A stretch of 64,000 nt of DNA, taken from the sequence record NC_070981.1. The stretch is one strand, 5' to 3'. The notes under the pieces were generated by a model. That model saw nothing but the letters and a program-made list of their open reading frames with translations, was not told the DNA's origin and ran no database searches. The stretch's first letter is position 1. Every line of letters starts with the position of its first letter. Position numbers and translations under genes: made by a program. Positions 10,318 to 43,695 of the stretch are shown piece by piece. Source of the stretch: Escherichia phage EK010.

Positions 10318-10395
10318 GCACCCTTAGCTCAATTGGATTAGAGTAGCGACCTTCTAAGTCGTCGGTTACAGGTTCGAATCCTGTAGGGTGCACCA
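10318..10395 (+). tRNA. tRNA-Arg (anticodon UCU)
   Basis: Hand-folded cloverleaf: 7-bp acceptor stem GCACCCT/AGGGTGC, anticodon loop CUUCUAA, T-arm ACAGG-TTCGAAT-CCTGT, encoded CCA. Confidence 0.85.
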
Positions 10396-17154: not shown

Positions 17155-17781
17155 ATGAGCTTGTTAAGAGATTTTCAACACTATTATTGTGGAACATGGA
17201 TTGCTCAGCGATCACCTGATGGTAAAAACCTCCCTCTATATGTGCTTGATGTTCGTCAGCAAGGTAACTTTGATATCGACGACTACTCACACGACGCTGA
17301 AATGTCTTTAGTGTTTGAGGCGGAACGCTGGACTAAAAACTCTGAAGGTCAGTTTGAACGTCAGATTGTTAGTAATATCCCAGTGTTTGATCACAGCCTC
17401 ATTCTAGAGTCTCCAGATGTAGGATACCTTCAGCATGGTAATAACATGGTGAGCTGGACCCATATCAACCCTGTTCGTCAGCGAGCTAAAGGCTTGATGG
17501 GGAATAAACTTCGTGGTGCTGCACCTTCTCTCGGACGTTCGATTCCGGGTGATTTGGTGTACAACTTGTTTAATCCAGAGTTTGAAGGGTTGGTTACTCG
17601 TTTCATCTATATCAACCCTGTCGATGGAAAAGTGTATTACAAAGGGGCTTACGTTGGAAACGTGCTTCTTGAAGCTGGCTATGGCGACAACGGTCGCCAA
17701 TCTTTAAACCTTCTGGAGAAGTTCAAGCATATTTCTTCAGACCTGTCATCATATAATGTAGAGTTGGTGGAATCATTATGA
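17155..17781 (+). CDS. hypothetical protein (208 aa)
   Basis: Track ORF. Confidence 0.6.
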   Translation: MSLLRDFQHYYCGTWIAQRSPDGKNLPLYVLDVRQQGNFDIDDYSHDAEMSLVFEAERWTKNSEGQFERQIVSNIPVFDHSLILESPDVGYLQHGNNMVSWTHINPVRQRAKGLMGNKLRGAAPSLGRSIPGDLVYNLFNPEFEGLVTRFIYINPVDGKVYYKGAYVGNVLLEAGYGDNGRQSLNLLEKFKHISSDLSSYNVELVESL

Positions 17782-18878
17782 CAACCGTAGCACAAGTTTT
17801 TGGATACCGTAACCCTCGCTTATCTGAACCACATCCAAGTATTGCTTTTCAGTGTGGTGTAGGTATTGAGTTAGAAGTCGAAGGTACAATTGACATTGAC
17901 GCTGATATGTGGGTTTGTACTGAAGATGGCTCTCTTCGTGATGGTTGTGAATTAGTGTGTGCACGACCTTACAACGGTGAAGAATTACTTCGTGCTATTA
18001 ACAATCTGAGTGAAGCAGTACAGGACTCTGGAGCCGAGGGAACTTGGCGCTGCTCCACTCACGTTCATATGGATATGCGGGACGCTGATAGTAATATCCT
18101 TAAGAAAGTTATTCTTGGGTGGACGTTCTATGAAAAGATGATGTTCAAATGTTCTGGATATCATCGTTACCGTAGTAACTTCTGCCCAGCTTTTGCTGTT
18201 GTTCAAGCTCAAGTTATGAATGCTTCATCAGCGTTCAACCGAGATGGGGAAGATTTCTTCCGTACTCTTGTTAATAGCTGGGACAAGTATACCTCCCTTA
18301 ACCTGTTGCCTCTATCTCAGTTTGGTTCTGTTGAGTTTCGTATTTCAGAGCCGAAGTGGAAAAAGAGTCAGCTGCTAAATCTGGTCAATCGCTTCTTGGT
18401 TCTCAAGAAACTGGCTGTTGAATATGCAGATTTAGATAATGAAGCTTATGTTGAGAAGTTGAATGAGCTGCGCTTCGCTCCTATGATTCAACATCTACCT
18501 CTAGACTATACTCCAAGAGATAGCGATCTCACTGAAGGGTATCGTCTTGCCCGTGATATTCTGTTCTGTCGTGAGCAATCTGTAACTTTGGTTGGTCGTG
18601 TTCGTGTGCAACAGACTGGCCCTGATGGTGAAGTCCTTATCAACTTACGTGATATGAATGACTTCTATGGTTTCTTGGGATATGTGCGCGGTAATGCCAA
18701 CACTGTCTATGAAGAGATCATGACCTACTACACTCCTCAGATTGAAAGCACTCGAATCGCAACGGTTCGTGAAATTCGTCACATGTTTGCATTGATGCGT
18801 GAATCAGGTAGCAGTGATAATAACATCACTGATTACATTCCAGACCATCTGGAAATGCAATTAGAACGACTGCTGTAA
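17778..18878 (+). CDS. putative amidoligase (GS/GCS-like, Amidoligase_2-type)
   Basis: GVGIELEVEG and STHVHMD motifs; sits next to a GATase and an AIG2-like gene. Confidence 0.55.
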   Translation: MTTVAQVFGYRNPRLSEPHPSIAFQCGVGIELEVEGTIDIDADMWVCTEDGSLRDGCELVCARPYNGEELLRAINNLSEAVQDSGAEGTWRCSTHVHMDMRDADSNILKKVILGWTFYEKMMFKCSGYHRYRSNFCPAFAVVQAQVMNASSAFNRDGEDFFRTLVNSWDKYTSLNLLPLSQFGSVEFRISEPKWKKSQLLNLVNRFLVLKKLAVEYADLDNEAYVEKLNELRFAPMIQHLPLDYTPRDSDLTEGYRLARDILFCREQSVTLVGRVRVQQTGPDGEVLINLRDMNDFYGFLGYVRGNANTVYEEIMTYYTPQIESTRIATVREIRHMFALMRESGSSDNNITDYIPDHLEMQLERLL

Positions 18879-33213: not shown

Positions 33214-33951
33214 ATGAGTCGTAGAGAATCTCGGAAAGCATCACGGAGAGAATTACGTCGTGAAGCTCTCGTCACCAAGAAAGGAAAGCGGGAATTTGAA
33301 GAAGTAGTTCTTGCTAAGCCGGTAGTACCTCAGAACCAATTCCAGAGTGAGCTGCTTAATGCAATTAAAACCAAACAGGTTGTATTCACAGATGCTCCTG
33401 CTGGTTGTGGTAAGACCTTCGTAATCACTTCTACAGTGATTGATGCTCTGAAGAGTGGGAAGATTGAGAAGATTATCCTAAGCCGACCTGCTGTTGGTAT
33501 GGGTAATAGTCTTGGATTACTTCCCGGTGGACTTCGTGAGAAGTTTGAACCATACCTAATGCCAATCGTTGATGTTATTACTCAGCGCTACGGTAAAGGT
33601 TTCTACGAATGTCAAGTAGGTAATGGTAATATTGAGTTCGTACCTCTGGAATATCTACGTGGTCGCTCGTTCAACGATGCTATCGTGATTGTTGATGAGT
33701 TCCAGAACACTACTCCTGATGAAGCATATTCAATCATGACACGTCTTGGTGAAACCTCTCAGATGTTCTGCATGGGGGACACTAACCAGCACGACATGCG
33801 TGGTGAGAGCGGTCTTGATTGGGCTACTGATTTCATCTACCGTCACCAGTTATTTGAATTTGCCGCTCTAGTAGATGGCGAATCAGATGATATTGTTCGT
33901 TCAGGTTTCTGTAAAGCTATTGTTAAAGCAATGGAATCTGAAAAATCATAA
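33214..33951 (+). CDS. phoH: PhoH-like ATPase
   Basis: Walker A APAGCGKTF, Walker B-like IVIVDEFQN. Confidence 0.8.
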   Translation: MSRRESRKASRRELRREALVTKKGKREFEEVVLAKPVVPQNQFQSELLNAIKTKQVVFTDAPAGCGKTFVITSTVIDALKSGKIEKIILSRPAVGMGNSLGLLPGGLREKFEPYLMPIVDVITQRYGKGFYECQVGNGNIEFVPLEYLRGRSFNDAIVIVDEFQNTTPDEAYSIMTRLGETSQMFCMGDTNQHDMRGESGLDWATDFIYRHQLFEFAALVDGESDDIVRSGFCKAIVKAMESEKS

Positions 33952-35747: not shown

Positions 35748-37595
35748 GTGATGGATAACCCTGATAAGTTACCTTTCATAACGGAGATGACAGTCGCTGA
35801 TATAATCTCAAAACAAGCGAAGCATGGAGTCAACTTCAACAGAAGAAACGCTCGGTGGTTTGTTCACCTTCTCAAAGAGATTATTGTCAATATTGATAAA
35901 GAACTGATTCCTCTCCTCCCCAAAATGCGGGTGGATGGTTCAACTTATGCTAAGCCTTTTAAGAAATCAGGTGCTTTACAGAAGTGGCCTCAACTCTATT
36001 GTGATAGGGTTGGTCTTAAAAGAGAAGATATCGGTGGGGCGTTTACTTGCGTTGAGTATGTAGACTTTGACCCATCAAAAGATGCACGTATCAAAGAAGC
36101 CTTGATGGATGAAGGTTTTATACCTCCAGAGTGGAATTATTCTAAGAAACCTTGGAATACTTTTGAAATTCGTAAAGCTATGAAGAAGTATGGTACATAC
36201 TCTGCATGGTATTCTGCTTGGATTCGAGGTAACGCTAAAGAGAAACAGACAGCAGAGATGATAGATGCTGATATCCGAAGGTTTTTGGATAAGCACTTCC
36301 GTTATCACACTGTCAACTATATGAAAGCCTATGTCAGCGGTTTAGGTCTTAACCCTAACAGGAAGAAGCCTGTAACCTTTGATGAAATCAAAAAAGCTTT
36401 GGCTACATCAAACAAGTGGCCTACAGCCCCTACAAACCTTGAGGAGACTCTTGAAGAGGGGCTTGGGGGTGAGCTAGGGGGTGTAGGAAGTTTGCTTAAG
36501 AGACGCGTTGTAGCGGCTCACAGGCTAGGTTTGATTAGCGGGCTTATCGACAAGGAACGTAAAGATGGTAAGTTGTCCGCCGAAGCTAATAGCTGCGCTA
36601 CTCCGACATTTCGTTTTAAACATCGCATTGTTGTTAATATTCCTTCTCGCGGTTTGTTTGGTCACGAGTGCCGCAGTCTTTTTCAATCTGACTATTCCTC
36701 AGACGATAGTCATAACCATCCTTTCATCATTACCAACCATATCCCTGATGGGTGTTACGTACGAAAGGGTACTAACATTATCTACGAAATGGGAAAACCG
36801 GGCAAGAAAGACAAACCAATAGGTGCTTATAAATTTTATGTACCTGCTGGTCGTGAAATCTTCTTAGGTTACGATGGCTCTGGTCTTGAGCTGAGGATGC
36901 TTGCTCATTACCTTATCAAAGAATGTCGTGAGATGCTCGCTGAAGCAGAGCAGGAAAACAACCCAGCTAAGAAACGAGAAGCTGAACGCGGTCTAGCTTC
37001 TGCTGTTATGTACAGAGATATTCTTTTAGAAGGAGATATTCACTCACACAACCAAAAACTTGCTGGCCTTCCTACTCGTGATAATGCTAAAACGTTTATC
37101 TACGCATTCAACTACGGAGCTGGTGACGCTAAGTTAGGAAGCATCGTAGGTGGTGGCTCTGATGAAGGGGCTGTCATGAGGGCAAGATTCTTAGCAGAGA
37201 ATCCTTGTATTGCAATTCTTATTGAACGTATGACAGAGAAAGCACAAAGTGGATACATCTACGGTGTGGATGGACGTCGTATTACAATGAGAAGGGATGC
37301 AACTGGAAAGGTTATGGTTCATAAAGCCTTAAACACCCTCTTACAGAGCGCTGGGGCGATTGTTATGAAGTATGCAATGCTATTCCTTAATAAATGGATT
37401 GAGCGTGATGGTGTTCGTTGTGCGAAGGTTATTGACATGCATGATGAAGGCCAGTTCACTGTACATCGTGACGATGTTAACAAACTTCGTACCCTCACTG
37501 AAGAGTGTGTTCGTAAAGCAGGTGAATACCTCAAAATGGAATGTCCTCTTGCATCTGATTGTAAGATTGGGTTAAACTGGAATCACACTCACTAA
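35748..37595 (+). CDS. family-A DNA polymerase, polymerase domain
   Basis: Motif A DGSGLELRMLAHY, motif B KTFIYAFNYGAG, motif C VIDMHDEGQF. Confidence 0.9.
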   Translation: MMDNPDKLPFITEMTVADIISKQAKHGVNFNRRNARWFVHLLKEIIVNIDKELIPLLPKMRVDGSTYAKPFKKSGALQKWPQLYCDRVGLKREDIGGAFTCVEYVDFDPSKDARIKEALMDEGFIPPEWNYSKKPWNTFEIRKAMKKYGTYSAWYSAWIRGNAKEKQTAEMIDADIRRFLDKHFRYHTVNYMKAYVSGLGLNPNRKKPVTFDEIKKALATSNKWPTAPTNLEETLEEGLGGELGGVGSLLKRRVVAAHRLGLISGLIDKERKDGKLSAEANSCATPTFRFKHRIVVNIPSRGLFGHECRSLFQSDYSSDDSHNHPFIITNHIPDGCYVRKGTNIIYEMGKPGKKDKPIGAYKFYVPAGREIFLGYDGSGLELRMLAHYLIKECREMLAEAEQENNPAKKREAERGLASAVMYRDILLEGDIHSHNQKLAGLPTRDNAKTFIYAFNYGAGDAKLGSIVGGGSDEGAVMRARFLAENPCIAILIERMTEKAQSGYIYGVDGRRITMRRDATGKVMVHKALNTLLQSAGAIVMKYAMLFLNKWIERDGVRCAKVIDMHDEGQFTVHRDDVNKLRTLTEECVRKAGEYLKMECPLASDCKIGLNWNHTH

Positions 37596-39772: not shown

Positions 39773-39923
39773 ACGATACAAAGTCTGGCTAGACGAAGGA
39801 GCTGAATATCCTGATGGTTCTGGCTGGAAAGTTGTTCTAGAAACAGACGACAGGGAGGAGGCTGAAACGAAAGCTGAATCCTTCAACTACTCATATTACG
39901 AGGACACATACGAGAATGGCTGA
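39756..39923 (+). CDS. small protein, paralog pair D
   Basis: Internal ATG of track ORF 39666-39923; paralog of 39009 gene. Confidence 0.45.
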   Translation: MVAQSKRYKVWLDEGAEYPDGSGWKVVLETDDREEAETKAESFNYSYYEDTYENG

Positions 39924-40536
39924 AGTTTATTTTGCAGGTGATGGTCACCTAGGCCATCGTAACATCTGTAACTTTAGGAAGAAGTTTAGTAGTATTGAAG
40001 AACATGATAAAGCTATCTTAGCAGCGTTTGATCATGTTACTAAACGCGATAAAACTTTCTTTACAGGTGACTGGGTGTTTGAGAAATATGCACTTGATAT
40101 TATCGCTGAAGTAAAGGGAGAGAAACATCTTGTCTTAGGGAACCATGACAGATTAGAACTTCTCCCTGATATGATGAAAGTCTTTAGACATATCAGCGGT
40201 GATTATAAGTACAAAGAATTTTGGGTAACTCATATTCCTATCCACTCTGATGAAATGAGAGGAAAGTATAATATCTATGCTCATACTCATAATTCTACTA
40301 TCAGAGATTGGAGATACTTCTGTACTTCTATGGAACAAATTGATTACAGAGCTGTGTCTCTGCAAGAGATTAGAAAAGAACTGGAAAGTAGGAAAGAGTG
40401 GGTAGCTTCTTTATTACAAAAAGATCATCCAATTACCAGCGAAGTACAAGAGATGTTAAGTAAACAAGCTGAATCTAACTTACCTTTTCAGAGAACAGTA
40501 GAACAAACTAGCTTTAAAGGTCTTTTAGAATGGTAG
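39916..40536 (+). CDS. calcineurin-like metallophosphoesterase
   Basis: GDGHLGH, FTGDWVF, LGNHD motifs. Confidence 0.7.
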   Translation: MAEVYFAGDGHLGHRNICNFRKKFSSIEEHDKAILAAFDHVTKRDKTFFTGDWVFEKYALDIIAEVKGEKHLVLGNHDRLELLPDMMKVFRHISGDYKYKEFWVTHIPIHSDEMRGKYNIYAHTHNSTIRDWRYFCTSMEQIDYRAVSLQEIRKELESRKEWVASLLQKDHPITSEVQEMLSKQAESNLPFQRTVEQTSFKGLLEW

Positions 40537-40730
40537 AAGTTATTGTTTTAAGTTAAGTTTTCTTTTGATTTTAATAGAGAATCAAAGTCCTAGGAGTCCT
40601 CAACCTAAATCAAGGATTTCCTTAATTCTCTATTTTTATCTCGCAGGTGTCTCCTGCCCTTCGGTACTTGCAAGGGTTACGATGATTGCCCAATATACAA
40701 GCCTGCAATAGCTTTACTAGCTATACCATA

Positions 40731-40739
40731 TATACATTA
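40731..40739 (-). promoter_or_regulatory. TAATGTATA motif on minus strand
   Basis: Plus-strand TATACATTA; orientation opposite to neighbouring genes. Confidence 0.25.
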
Positions 40740-40801
40740 CTACTTACTGTTATCTACTACCAAAAAGGTTATAGTATAATAGAACCTTATCTGTATAAGT
40801 G

Positions 40802-40810
40802 TAATGTATA
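40802..40810 (+). promoter_or_regulatory. TAATGTATA motif, candidate phage-sigma promoter element
   Basis: Exact 9-mer ~60 nt upstream of ATG 40870. Confidence 0.4.
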
Positions 40811-40869
40811 TAGTATACAAACCGCTCAAAGAGAGCAACAATCTTAAATCTATATAAGGAAATATTAAT

Positions 40870-41610
40870 ATGTCTATGATCCCTGAACTGTCTGTATCCC
40901 GTAAATCCAACTACGATGTAATCCCTGATGGTGAGTACGAAGCACGTATTGTTCGTGTTGTAGGTTTGGGTGTTCACAATCGTGACCCTTGGATTGACCC
41001 TAAAACCAAAGCAGTTACTCCTAAGAACCCAGCTTTCCGTATGGACTTAGCTTTTGAGCTGATTGGCGTAGATGCAACAGGGACTGATAATGAAGGCAAA
41101 CCTCTGGACCCTCGCCCTGCTTGCCAGTTTAAATCTTTCGATGTAAATCCACGAGCTAAGAACTCTGGTATTCTGAATCTGATTAAAATGATCGACCCAA
41201 GTGTTCAAGCACTGAAAGGTGATTTGGGTTGGTTTAAAGATATGCTGTTAGGTCAGCCTGTTAACATTCTGGTTAATTCCTATGTAAACAAAGCTGGTGA
41301 GAAGAAAAACTCTATTAAGAGTATCACTCCAATTCCGACCAAATATCGTGATGCTGTAGGTGCTCCTCGTAGTGAGTTGATCTTCTTCGAACCGTATGCT
41401 GAGACTGATGCTAACTTAGCTGCTTATCAAGCAATCTTCCCATTCCAACGTAACCTCTTGACTCAAGCTAACGATGCTAAGAACATTCCTCTGGCTGGTC
41501 GTGAAGTTACCAAAGCTTCTGACACTGAACAGAAGGACGCAACTCCGAGTATCCCTACTATTAATGAAGAGCCGCAGTCTACCTTTGAAGAGGACGACTC
41601 TCCTTTCTGA
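40870..41610 (+). CDS. possible single-stranded DNA-binding protein
   Basis: Acidic C-terminal tail ending EEDDSPF, reminiscent of SSB C-termini (DDDIPF); no fold evidence. Confidence 0.4.
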   Translation: MSMIPELSVSRKSNYDVIPDGEYEARIVRVVGLGVHNRDPWIDPKTKAVTPKNPAFRMDLAFELIGVDATGTDNEGKPLDPRPACQFKSFDVNPRAKNSGILNLIKMIDPSVQALKGDLGWFKDMLLGQPVNILVNSYVNKAGEKKNSIKSITPIPTKYRDAVGAPRSELIFFEPYAETDANLAAYQAIFPFQRNLLTQANDAKNIPLAGREVTKASDTEQKDATPSIPTINEEPQSTFEEDDSPF

Positions 41611-41633: not shown

Positions 41634-41657
41634 AGCCACCTTCGGGTGGCTTTTTTC
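41634..41657 (+). terminator. intrinsic terminator
   Basis: AGCCACC-TTCG-GGTGGCT hairpin, TTTTT. Confidence 0.75.
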
Positions 41658-42034: not shown

Positions 42035-42493
42035 ATGTCAGGAAAACTAACGTGGAGAAGCTCTGAAAAGAAGAGCAATCAATGGAACTCTAGGTTTGCT
42101 GGAAAAGAGGCTGGCTGTTTGATAGATGCTGGATACATTGTTGTGAGGTTTAATGGGAAAGCACATAAAGCTCACAGAGTGGCTTGGTATTTAAAAACAG
42201 GAGAAATCCCTGATACTGATATCGACCACAAAGATCAGATTAAATCTAACAATTCTTGGACCAACCTGAGAAAAGCAACCAATGCGCAGAATCAGATGAA
42301 TACATCTGCTCAGAAGAATTCTATAACAGGTATAAAAGGTGTCGGATATAGAAAGGATGTTAACAAGTGGACTGCTCGAATAGGGTTTGAGGATAAAGTT
42401 ATTTGGCTTGGTTTTCATGATACACTGGAAGGAGCTAAGTGTGCATATAAAGAAAAAGCTATTGAGTTGTACGGGGATTTTGCTAGCTTTTAG
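42035..42493 (+). CDS. HNH homing endonuclease with AP2-like domain
   Basis: IDHKDQIKSNNSWTNLRKATNAQNQMN; paralog of 31230 gene. Confidence 0.75.
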   Translation: MSGKLTWRSSEKKSNQWNSRFAGKEAGCLIDAGYIVVRFNGKAHKAHRVAWYLKTGEIPDTDIDHKDQIKSNNSWTNLRKATNAQNQMNTSAQKNSITGIKGVGYRKDVNKWTARIGFEDKVIWLGFHDTLEGAKCAYKEKAIELYGDFASF

Positions 42494-42707: not shown

Positions 42708-43045
42708 TGGAAGTCCTTAATTTCTACAAAGAGGGGTTGAAGATTCCAGAAGGCGCTATTTACATAGGAAGATATAGTGCCAAGCATGGTCTACCACAAT
42801 CTAAGTATCACAACCCAATAAAGCTCCAAGAGGGTGAGCCAAGAGGTTCTACTCTGGATAAGTATAGGAAATATTTATGGGGTGAGATAAAAGCTGGCAG
42901 AATAACTGTGGAAGAGCTTGCAAATCTGTATGGAACAAACCTTGTGTGTTATTGTAAGCCCAAACCTTGTCATGGGGATATCCTTATGGCTGCTATAAAA
43001 TGGGCAAAAGAAGAAATGGATAATGCTATAACTAAGGAAAGATGA
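42707..43045 (+). CDS. DUF4326-like protein (CYCxPxPCHGD motif)
   Basis: Track ORF; motif [15 protein letters not shown]; assignment from memory. Confidence 0.45.
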
Positions 43046-43695
43046 TGGCGAAGAAGACAACACCTACAAGATATCGAATTCATGGAATCCCTATTAAGTA
43101 TATCTCAAACTATGAAGAGTTTTACAGAGTGAACTGGAAAGTGGTTCACAAGTTCTTCATGTATGATATCAGGGATTATCATGAAGCAGAAGATGTGGCA
43201 CAAGAAGTGCTCTTGAATGCTTGGAGATTTGTCTTCGCTAAGCAGGATGAGAGAGTCCTAGAGGATGAGAAAGACCAAGAGCATATGACTTATCGAGTCA
43301 AGAACATTATCTGGTCGATTCGTTCTAATCGTCAGACAGTTGGAGACCGACGTATCTACTCTATTCCAGAGGCTGATATGTTTAGACCTCCTGAGATGAA
43401 CTCATGGGAAAGTCCTTTAGAAATTGCGATGGATAAGCATGATTCTACTGGAGACCCATTCTTGGAATCTAGAATCTTTTTCTTCTTCCAAGACCTGAGT
43501 GACATTATGGAAAACCGTAAGATGGCAAGCATGTTCTCAATGCTCTTTCTCGGCATCCCACATGATCACATCCAGCAGGAGCTGGGAATTTCACACGGAA
43601 CCTTCTATCGCCGTTATGCAGAGAATCGTGATCTGTATGAAGCGGTAGTAGAGAAGCACTTTGATAAAGAAGATCTTCAAGGGATGATTCAATAA
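43042..43695 (+). CDS. phage-encoded sigma factor (sigma70/ECF-like)
   Basis: Region-2-like [15 protein letters not shown] and C-terminal HTH-like region. Confidence 0.65.

Follow-up and report, generated by a model that had tools for sequence, protein, structure and literature searches.

Divergent gp36-type promoters and a candidate structured non-coding RNA upstream of the SSB-like gene gp40 in phiEco32-like phages

Results

The intergenic region at positions 40537-40869 was analyzed within a 64-kb stretch of phage DNA (the window). Over the surrounding 1.8 kb, the DNA matches Escherichia phage E20-1 (OP293233) at 100% identity. E20-1 is a phiEco32-like Kuravirus, and a similar intergenic region occurs in about 97 phage records. 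Every gene around it is located on the plus strand. The gene that precedes it (39916-40536, +) had been described as a metallophosphoesterase in the original prediction and indeed encodes a Metallophos-type phosphoesterase; the next gene is the gp40 homologue (40870-41610, +), whose SSB-like OB-fold product has an acidic tail with F as its last residue. The gene for the phage sigma factor (gp36) is found at 43042-43695 and the DNA polymerase gene at 35748-37595. No annotation lies under the spacer in the E20-1 record or in nearly all other records checked.

Two features of the neighboring genes differ among relatives. The phosphoesterase ORF of E20-1 is 206 aa long and ends in 32 residues that match phrog_14248, a distinct family of small proteins; relatives carry a 167-aa phosphoesterase followed by two small ORFs, and the ORF of the E20-1 lineage is a gene fusion, frameshift or deletion. 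Further downstream, an HNH homing endonuclease gene (42035-42493) separates the spanin gene from the sigma-factor region, at a position occupied in phiEco32 by a macro-domain gene (gene 37).

The intergenic region had been called AT-rich and highly structured. Its G+C content is 31.8%, compared to 42.1% for the 64-kb window, and RNA folding of 40537-40724 is moderately better than that of shuffled sequences on both strands (z -2.0 and -2.3). The repeats and the two oppositely oriented TAATGTATA copies are present where they had been placed, the latter on the minus strand at ~40731 and on the plus strand at ~40802. The inverted repeats are AATAGAGAATCAA/TTAATTCTCTATT (40573-40585 and 40622-40634), GCAGG-TGTCT-CCTGC (40643-40657), CCCTT...AAGGG (40657-40661 and 40672-40676) and AAGGTT...AACCTT (40765-40770 and 40783-40788). 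The last of these forms a hairpin between the two motif copies (40765-40788) that contains TATAAT (40775-40780). This hairpin is specific to the E20-1 lineage, being present in E20-1, SU7, 4E8, TH34 and ECBP2 and not conserved in phiEco32-type phages.

The gp40 protein belongs to no Pfam family and had no match in a profile search of PDB sequences. An AlphaFold model built from a 32-sequence alignment is a confident OB fold (pLDDT 82.8); a single-sequence model reached a pLDDT of 35 and was not usable. All members of the family have an acidic tail ending in PF, which recalls that of T7 gp2.5. The earlier description of the downstream gene as SSB-like is therefore moderately supported by the modelled fold together with the tail. 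Directly 3' of gp40 we found a strong intrinsic terminator, AGCCACC-TTCG-GGTGGCT (41634-41651), followed by a T-run (to 41657). With this terminator right behind it, the SSB-like gene constitutes a short unit bracketed by hairpin/T-run structures.

Promoters recognized by E. coli RNA polymerase with the phiEco32 sigma factor gp36 have one published consensus element, tAATGTAtA (PMC4281155, PMC8948821, PMC12276001), and transcription from these promoters starts 6-8 nt downstream of the element (PMC8948821). Six gp36 promoters have been identified experimentally in phiEco32: the late promoters P6, P13 and P26, and the middle promoters P40, P58 and P68 (PMC8948821, Table S3). At P68, G-37 and A-34 are contacted by the C-terminal domain of gp36 and are needed for transcription (cryo-EM paper, PMC12276001). 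Exact TAATGTATA occurs four times in the 64-kb window where 0.58 occurrences are expected, and none of 100 shuffles reached four. Outside the intergenic region, the other exact or near-exact copies in the window map to P68 (29154, aAATGTATA), P58 (33955) and P26 (50937, minus strand).

The plus-strand copy (40802-40810, predicted start 40817) lies at the position that matches the motif upstream of gene 40 in phiEco32. By position it is the counterpart of the mapped phiEco32 P40 and as such already known, not new. As expected of a gp36 promoter, it precedes a co-oriented gene, gp40 (40870-41610). Its -10 element is invariant in the 24 distinct sequences compared; the DNA upstream is not conserved and position -37 is a T. 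The G-37/A-34 pair is thus missing from this copy, and published phiEco32 P40 is also without a -35 block. The mRNA leader of gp40 (40817-40869, +) comprises the conserved stretch ACAAACCGCTCAAAGAGAGCAACAATCTT (40818-40846) and the ribosome-binding site AAGGA. This stretch is invariant across Kuravirus, and a similar leader precedes the homologue in Salmonella phage 7-11 (L024, 1075-1150). In phage T4, gene 32 is autoregulated via a translational operator, and by analogy ACAAACCGCTCAAAGAGAGCAACAATCTT could be such an operator for gp40.

We gave the name Pas to the minus-strand orphan promoter. Its -10 element TAATGTATA occupies 40731-40739 (minus strand), and the 6-8 nt rule for gp36 places its predicted transcription start at 40724, 7 nt after the element. 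The -35 element, TGGTAGTAgAT, spans -38 to -28 (40752-40762, minus strand). When AATGTA is placed at -14 to -9, following the cryo-EM paper, Pas has a G at -37 and an A at -34. On the minus strand, TTGGTAGTAGATA lies 16 nt upstream of AATGTA, and this block of 13-14 nt is shared in the same register with P68, both in the window (29131, plus strand) and in phiEco32. The two bases required at P68 are thus supplied in the minus copy by TGGTAGTA, again in the register of P68. The bipartite arrangement TGGTAGTA-N15/16-AATGTA is found at two sites in the 64 kb, P68 and Pas, compared to 0.00 expected.

In 24 distinct Kuravirus sequences, which comprised GenBank phages picked across the identity range, IMG/VR sequences and metagenome contigs, the -35 and -10 elements of Pas are invariant and the spacer between them is variable. 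The -10 element reads TAATGAATA or TAATGTATT in more distant relatives, and both elements persist in relatives whose gp40 is 67-79% identical. Pas does not appear among the six published gp36 promoters (PMC8948821, Table S3). It departs from the expectation of a co-oriented downstream gene: the genes here all read in the plus direction, and there is no conserved minus-strand ORF. Judged by its elements, Pas has full promoter anatomy, and we infer that it is fired by the gp36 holoenzyme.

It is conceivable that the minus copy is an inactive relic that remained, unused, after a gp36 promoter had been duplicated in inverted orientation. Such an origin would fit its antisense orientation to all surrounding genes and its absence from the published promoter list. 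A relic, however, would not be expected to keep both elements invariant while spacer and flanks diverge, as they do across the 24 sequences and the relatives with 67-79% identical gp40, nor would it account for the compensatory evolution immediately downstream that is described below. We therefore regard a dead promoter as very unlikely.

Both TAATGTATA copies lie within the arms of a perfect 12-nt inverted repeat, TATATACATTAC (40729-40740) and GTAATGTATATA (40801-40812), which are 60 nt apart. Among 2000 dinucleotide-preserving shuffles, only 1% contained a perfect inverted repeat of 12 nt or longer. This rarity (p ~0.01) could suggest one palindromic DNA site, the arms being operator half-sites or a cruciform bound by a regulator. 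The arms, however, consist of the known promoter element plus two flanking bases, and only the minus arm has a conserved -35 element at promoter spacing. Moreover, the predicted start-to-start distance is 83, 85-86, 93-94, 119 or 214 bp depending on the phage. Since this spacing varies among relatives from 83 to 214 bp, with a 128-nt insertion in ES17-type phages, the two motif copies behave as separate promoters; a single palindromic site was rejected on this ground, and we consider it highly improbable. The "regulator site" of the original prediction is accordingly not supported. The idea of a divergent promoter, on the other hand, is well supported by sequence comparison: the motif is the known gp36 element, the plus copy corresponds to P40, and the minus copy carries a conserved -35/-10 pair.

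The insertion in ES17-type phages (L011; also L018, L006 and L031-L034) lies between Pas and P40 (L011, ~995-1125), sets the promoters 214 bp apart and contains an annotated 47-aa plus-strand ORF (L011, 1023-1166).

Downstream of Pas, we predict a non-coding transcript of ~155-160 nt (40565-40724, minus strand), its putative 3' end lying at the base of a long hairpin. Conservation stops at the base of this hairpin, and in L044 the stop codon of the upstream gene abuts it; the conserved unit therefore runs from Pas to the long hairpin. This unit measures ~155-160 nt in E20-1; where the middle module is longer, it reaches ~185-190 nt. In common with small RNA genes it has a putative promoter of its own, a covarying 5' hairpin and no ORF; its presumed 3' end would depend on a hairpin with a weak U-tract. 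No conserved ORF was found on either strand. A 37-aa plus-strand ORF called in PHANOTATE-based records, which covers the module and the promoter part of the spacer, was discarded as a candidate, as it is interrupted by stops in phiEco32, KBNP1711, L044, L047 and L055. In Rfam searches the region matched no family at gathering or permissive thresholds (best match E 0.76, far below threshold), and the only hit at threshold in the whole window was a tRNA at 10318; this is a tRNA-Arg (TCT) gene in the early region (10318-10395).

The predicted RNA begins with a 5'-terminal hairpin, AUAGCU-aguaa-AGCUAU, followed by UUGCA (40708-40724, minus strand). In all phages that carry the conserved block described below, the hairpin opens at the predicted +1, with UGCA invariably behind it; its position 7 nt downstream of the -10 element lends indirect support to a gp36-type start. 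Within Kuravirus the stem varies by compensatory substitution (AUAGUU/AACUAU, AGAGUUA/UAACUCU), and one variant, AUAGAU/UUCUAU, loses the sixth pair. In more distant relatives the stem is replaced outright, by AUCUCU/AGAGAU in L055 and by ACAUC/GAUGU in the second clade. In a 13-sequence alignment of the hairpin, pairing holds for 97% of cells, and covariation scores 0.291 compared to 0.109 in shuffles; this score was reached by one of 500 shuffles and fell to near zero once the partners were slid. The two most frequent variants (AUAGCU/AGUUAU) contain a G.U pair in minus-strand RNA. The plus strand would have an A.C mismatch at this place, and these variants fold only as minus-strand RNA. Covariation at +1, together with G.U pairs that are compatible with folding of this strand alone, points to minus-strand transcription and to selection on RNA shape, and the 5' hairpin provides the main evidence for both.

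A 12-mer from the 5' hairpin region, GTAAAGCTATTG (40706-40717, minus strand), recurs on the plus strand at 33911-33922, just upstream of the P58-type promoter (33955). This repetition could be due to chance (blast E 0.64).

Between the 5' hairpin and the structures further downstream lies a variable module (40666-40703), which comes in at least three alternative versions that cannot be aligned with one another. E20-1 and phiEco32 carry type A, whereas ECBP2, ES17 and MN05 carry type B; the second clade has a third type, and the module of L050 is a mosaic.

The module is followed by a very strongly conserved non-coding block of ~95 nt (40572-40665) that comprises a long hairpin, a T-run/A-run and a small G+C hairpin. 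This block, which had not figured in the original prediction, is the most conserved feature of the locus. Across 18 phages, 28-29 of every 30 columns are invariant, compared to mostly 25-26, with a peak of 27, in the gp40 gene. Compared with second-clade phages, the block shows 91-94% identity and the gp40 gene 72-75% at the DNA level. None of the indels in the block (+1, +2 and -1) has a length divisible by three. Each clade contains both block haplotypes (AGTCCT twice or AGTCCCT twice), which points to recombination, and part of the apparent conservation may therefore reflect exchange and not selection. The block had no match in E. coli genomes, a single chance-level match among plasmids, and no paralogous copies within the window.

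The small G+C hairpin of the block, GCAGG-TGTCT-CCTGC (40643-40657), has an invariant stem and a loop in which T/G varies. The block as a whole is nearly invariant, and its structure has almost no covariation support for this reason. A direct repeat within it (40588-40605, plus strand AGTCCTAGGAGTCCT) is present as AGTCCT twice in E20-1-type and as AGTCCCT twice in phiEco32-type phages, both copies changing together, and its possible partner, AAGGA(T)TT/AAGGGATT, also varies. This pattern suggests alternative pairings or a tandem protein site.

The long imperfect hairpin (40573-40634) is a candidate two-way terminator. Such intrinsic terminators consist of a hairpin flanked by an A-run and a T-run between converging transcripts. 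The hairpin described here resembles them in being one hairpin with both flanks, located between what would be converging transcripts. It differs from them in its A+U-rich stem, its long, internally folded loop and its weak U-tract on the minus strand, and its sequence is far more conserved than is usual for terminators. The predicted energy is more favorable on the minus than on the plus strand (-21.7 versus -15.7 kcal/mol in E20-1; -23.5 versus -18.2 kcal/mol in phiEco32), and G.U pairs extend the stem on the minus strand. The sequence 3' of the hairpin on the plus strand is TTTTTATCTC, including invariant UUUUUAUCU. On the minus strand it is UAUU(U)AAAA (UAUUAAAA), or UUUUAAAA in the second clade. 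A scan with a terminator consensus made no call at the long hairpin and detected no canonical intrinsic terminator on the minus strand. The case for a plus-strand terminator thus comprises a hairpin of -15.7 to -18.2 kcal/mol and UUUUUAUCU on one side, and an A+U-rich stem, a structured loop of ~40 nt and the missing scan call on the other.

The cassette always lies directly upstream of P40-gp40, whatever gene is located further upstream: E20-1 has the phosphoesterase fusion there, phiEco32 has gene 41, and second-clade phages have unrelated ORFs. In two intermediate contigs, L052 and L054, the Pas-like -35/-10 pair is kept and the block is absent, the promoter facing unrelated DNA of 79-81% A+T. 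Neither the block nor an opposing promoter was found in 7-11, GAP52, Proteus 3H10_20, Aeromonas BUCT695 or metagenomic contigs with 64-65% identical gp40. In these distant relatives the spacer is only 75-145 nt long, or ~200 nt are readable upstream (L053, gp40 65%), and where a promoter was looked for, there was either one on the plus strand with another motif or none that is recognizable. The element is therefore restricted to Kuravirus/Suseptimavirus and closely related metagenomic sequences.

Metagenomic relatives with 64% identical gp40 (L036, 1390-1440; L037; L039) are without TAATGTATA and have TAGCTTAGCTTAGCTTTGATATGCTAGCTTTGCTAG upstream of the gene. This sequence contains TAGCTTTGCTAG, which is close to TAGCTTTACTAG of the E20-1 hairpin region.

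Discussion

We propose that the intergenic region harbors a divergent pair of gp36 promoters, of which Pas makes a structured non-coding RNA of ~155 nt that ends at the large hairpin. Weighing the sequence comparisons, we consider this reading somewhat better than even, with a probability of roughly 0.55. The interval would then be a transcription boundary formed by two independent, back-to-back promoters. The plus-strand promoter, the P40 counterpart, would drive the mRNA of SSB-like gp40. Pas, which serves no gene, would start at ~40724 and transcribe leftward, producing an RNA that opens with a hairpin at its first base. A hairpin in this place is a common means of RNA stabilization. The RNA would continue through the exchangeable middle module and the small G+C hairpin and end at or just after the large hairpin at 40573-40634. 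On the plus strand, this hairpin with its T-run could stop transcripts arriving from the upstream genes. The product would be antisense to the 3' end of the upstream operon.

Several observations weigh against this proposal, in addition to the scant covariation and the possible recombination in the block. The tail on the minus strand is UAUUAAAA or UUUUAAAA and drew no terminator call; a search by complementarity within the window for targets of the Pas RNA returned only chance-level matches of 9-12 nt; and L052 and L054 keep the promoter without the block, so the role of the promoter may not depend on the RNA. Firing of the gp36 holoenzyme at Pas, the precise points at which the RNA begins and ends, and its role are inferred features of the model. 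Outside the original promoter-mapping paper (Pavlova et al. 2012), in which the site may already have been tested, the literature searched describes neither antisense transcription nor a small RNA or replication origin here.

More tentatively, Pas and the block might represent an unrecognized non-coding RNA family of phiEco32-like phages, made by the phage sigma factor and equipped with an exchangeable specificity module, which could act as a primer or origin RNA, a trans-acting regulator or a counter-defence RNA. A formal parallel is the OOP RNA of phage lambda, a 77-nt transcript made by host sigma-70 polymerase that has a clear terminator and was once proposed as a replication primer. Like OOP, the predicted Pas product is a short non-coding RNA that is made from a promoter directed against the main operon, overlaps the 3' end of the upstream gene region and adjoins replication functions. 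The two differ in that they have no sequence relationship, and the Pas RNA would be ~155 nt long, depend on a phage sigma factor and have an uncertain 3' end.

The main rival to the divergent pair with a non-coding RNA is a transcription-activated origin, in which Pas would open or prime the DNA for a T7-like replisome and the block would be an RNA-DNA hybrid or helicase-loading site. Promoters that serve no gene, or that open or prime an origin, are exemplified by phi1.1A/B (at the primary origin), phiOL and phiOR of T7 and by oriF and oriG of T4; they occur in phages with a T7-like polymerase, a primase-helicase and a gp2.5-like SSB. Pas resembles these origin promoters in being phage-specific and without a gene to serve. 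It is located in the replication module, between the DNA polymerase gene (35748-37595) and the SSB-like gene, and phiEco32 encodes a primase/helicase and a family-A polymerase. Retention of the promoter in L052 and L054 in front of unrelated DNA of 79-81% A+T would be in line with an origin, and the conservation of the primary sequence of the block, loops included, would suit a site that acts at the DNA level. However, T7 and T4 origins have an AT-rich unwinding region directly downstream, whereas the stretch that Pas would transcribe in E20-1 is structured and not unusually AT-rich: over the first 150 nt from the predicted start, phages with the block have an A+T content of 57-62%, close to that of the genome. 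GC skew, which is dominated by gene orientation, shows no sign change or step at 40.6 kb. The G.U-dependent 5' hairpin indicates selection on RNA folding, which a primer RNA would not obviously need, ColE1 RNA II being a primer RNA that does need it. Finally, no origin has been reported for phiEco32-like phages in the literature searched. On balance, an origin at this locus, as also raised in the original prediction, is a tenable but less likely reading.

Alternatively, Pas might function at the level of the promoter, as an insulator. Its firing, together with the hairpin and T-run, would block read-through into the P40-gp40-sigma unit, the RNA itself having no role, and negative supercoiling from divergent transcription may in addition stimulate P40. 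This would agree with the lack of a conserved -35 element in P40 and the full one in Pas, with the constant position of the promoter pair next to gp40, with the hairpin/T-run structures that bracket gp40, and with persistence of the promoter without the block in L052 and L054. It would leave unexplained, however, why a covarying hairpin sits exactly at +1 and why ~95 nt are nearly invariant, loops included, and it sits uneasily with a start-to-start distance that varies from 83 to 214 bp. We thus consider it unlikely that insulation is the sole function of Pas.

phiEco32 is a model for how a phage sigma factor takes over E. coli RNA polymerase. It shares with the phage analyzed here an encoded sigma factor and the -10 element of P68 and P40; Pas carries the -35 block of P68 in register, and the plus copy is located where P40 lies, so that this promoter is not new. 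All six reported phiEco32 gp36 promoters serve genes. Pas differs from them in that it opposes all neighboring genes, has no gene to express and is outside the published six; it would be a seventh promoter and add an unrecognized layer to this system. If confirmed, it would be a fully conserved, backward-facing promoter with both elements known from the cryo-EM structure, and it could lead to a phage small RNA, an insulator of the SSB-sigma unit or the replication origin of the phiEco32 group.

One further candidate element was noted in the early region. TAATGTAGA, the variant element of P6, occurs at 17754-17762 (+), at the end of an early-region ORF and before the ORF at 17778-18878, and could be an internal gp36 promoter or a chance occurrence.
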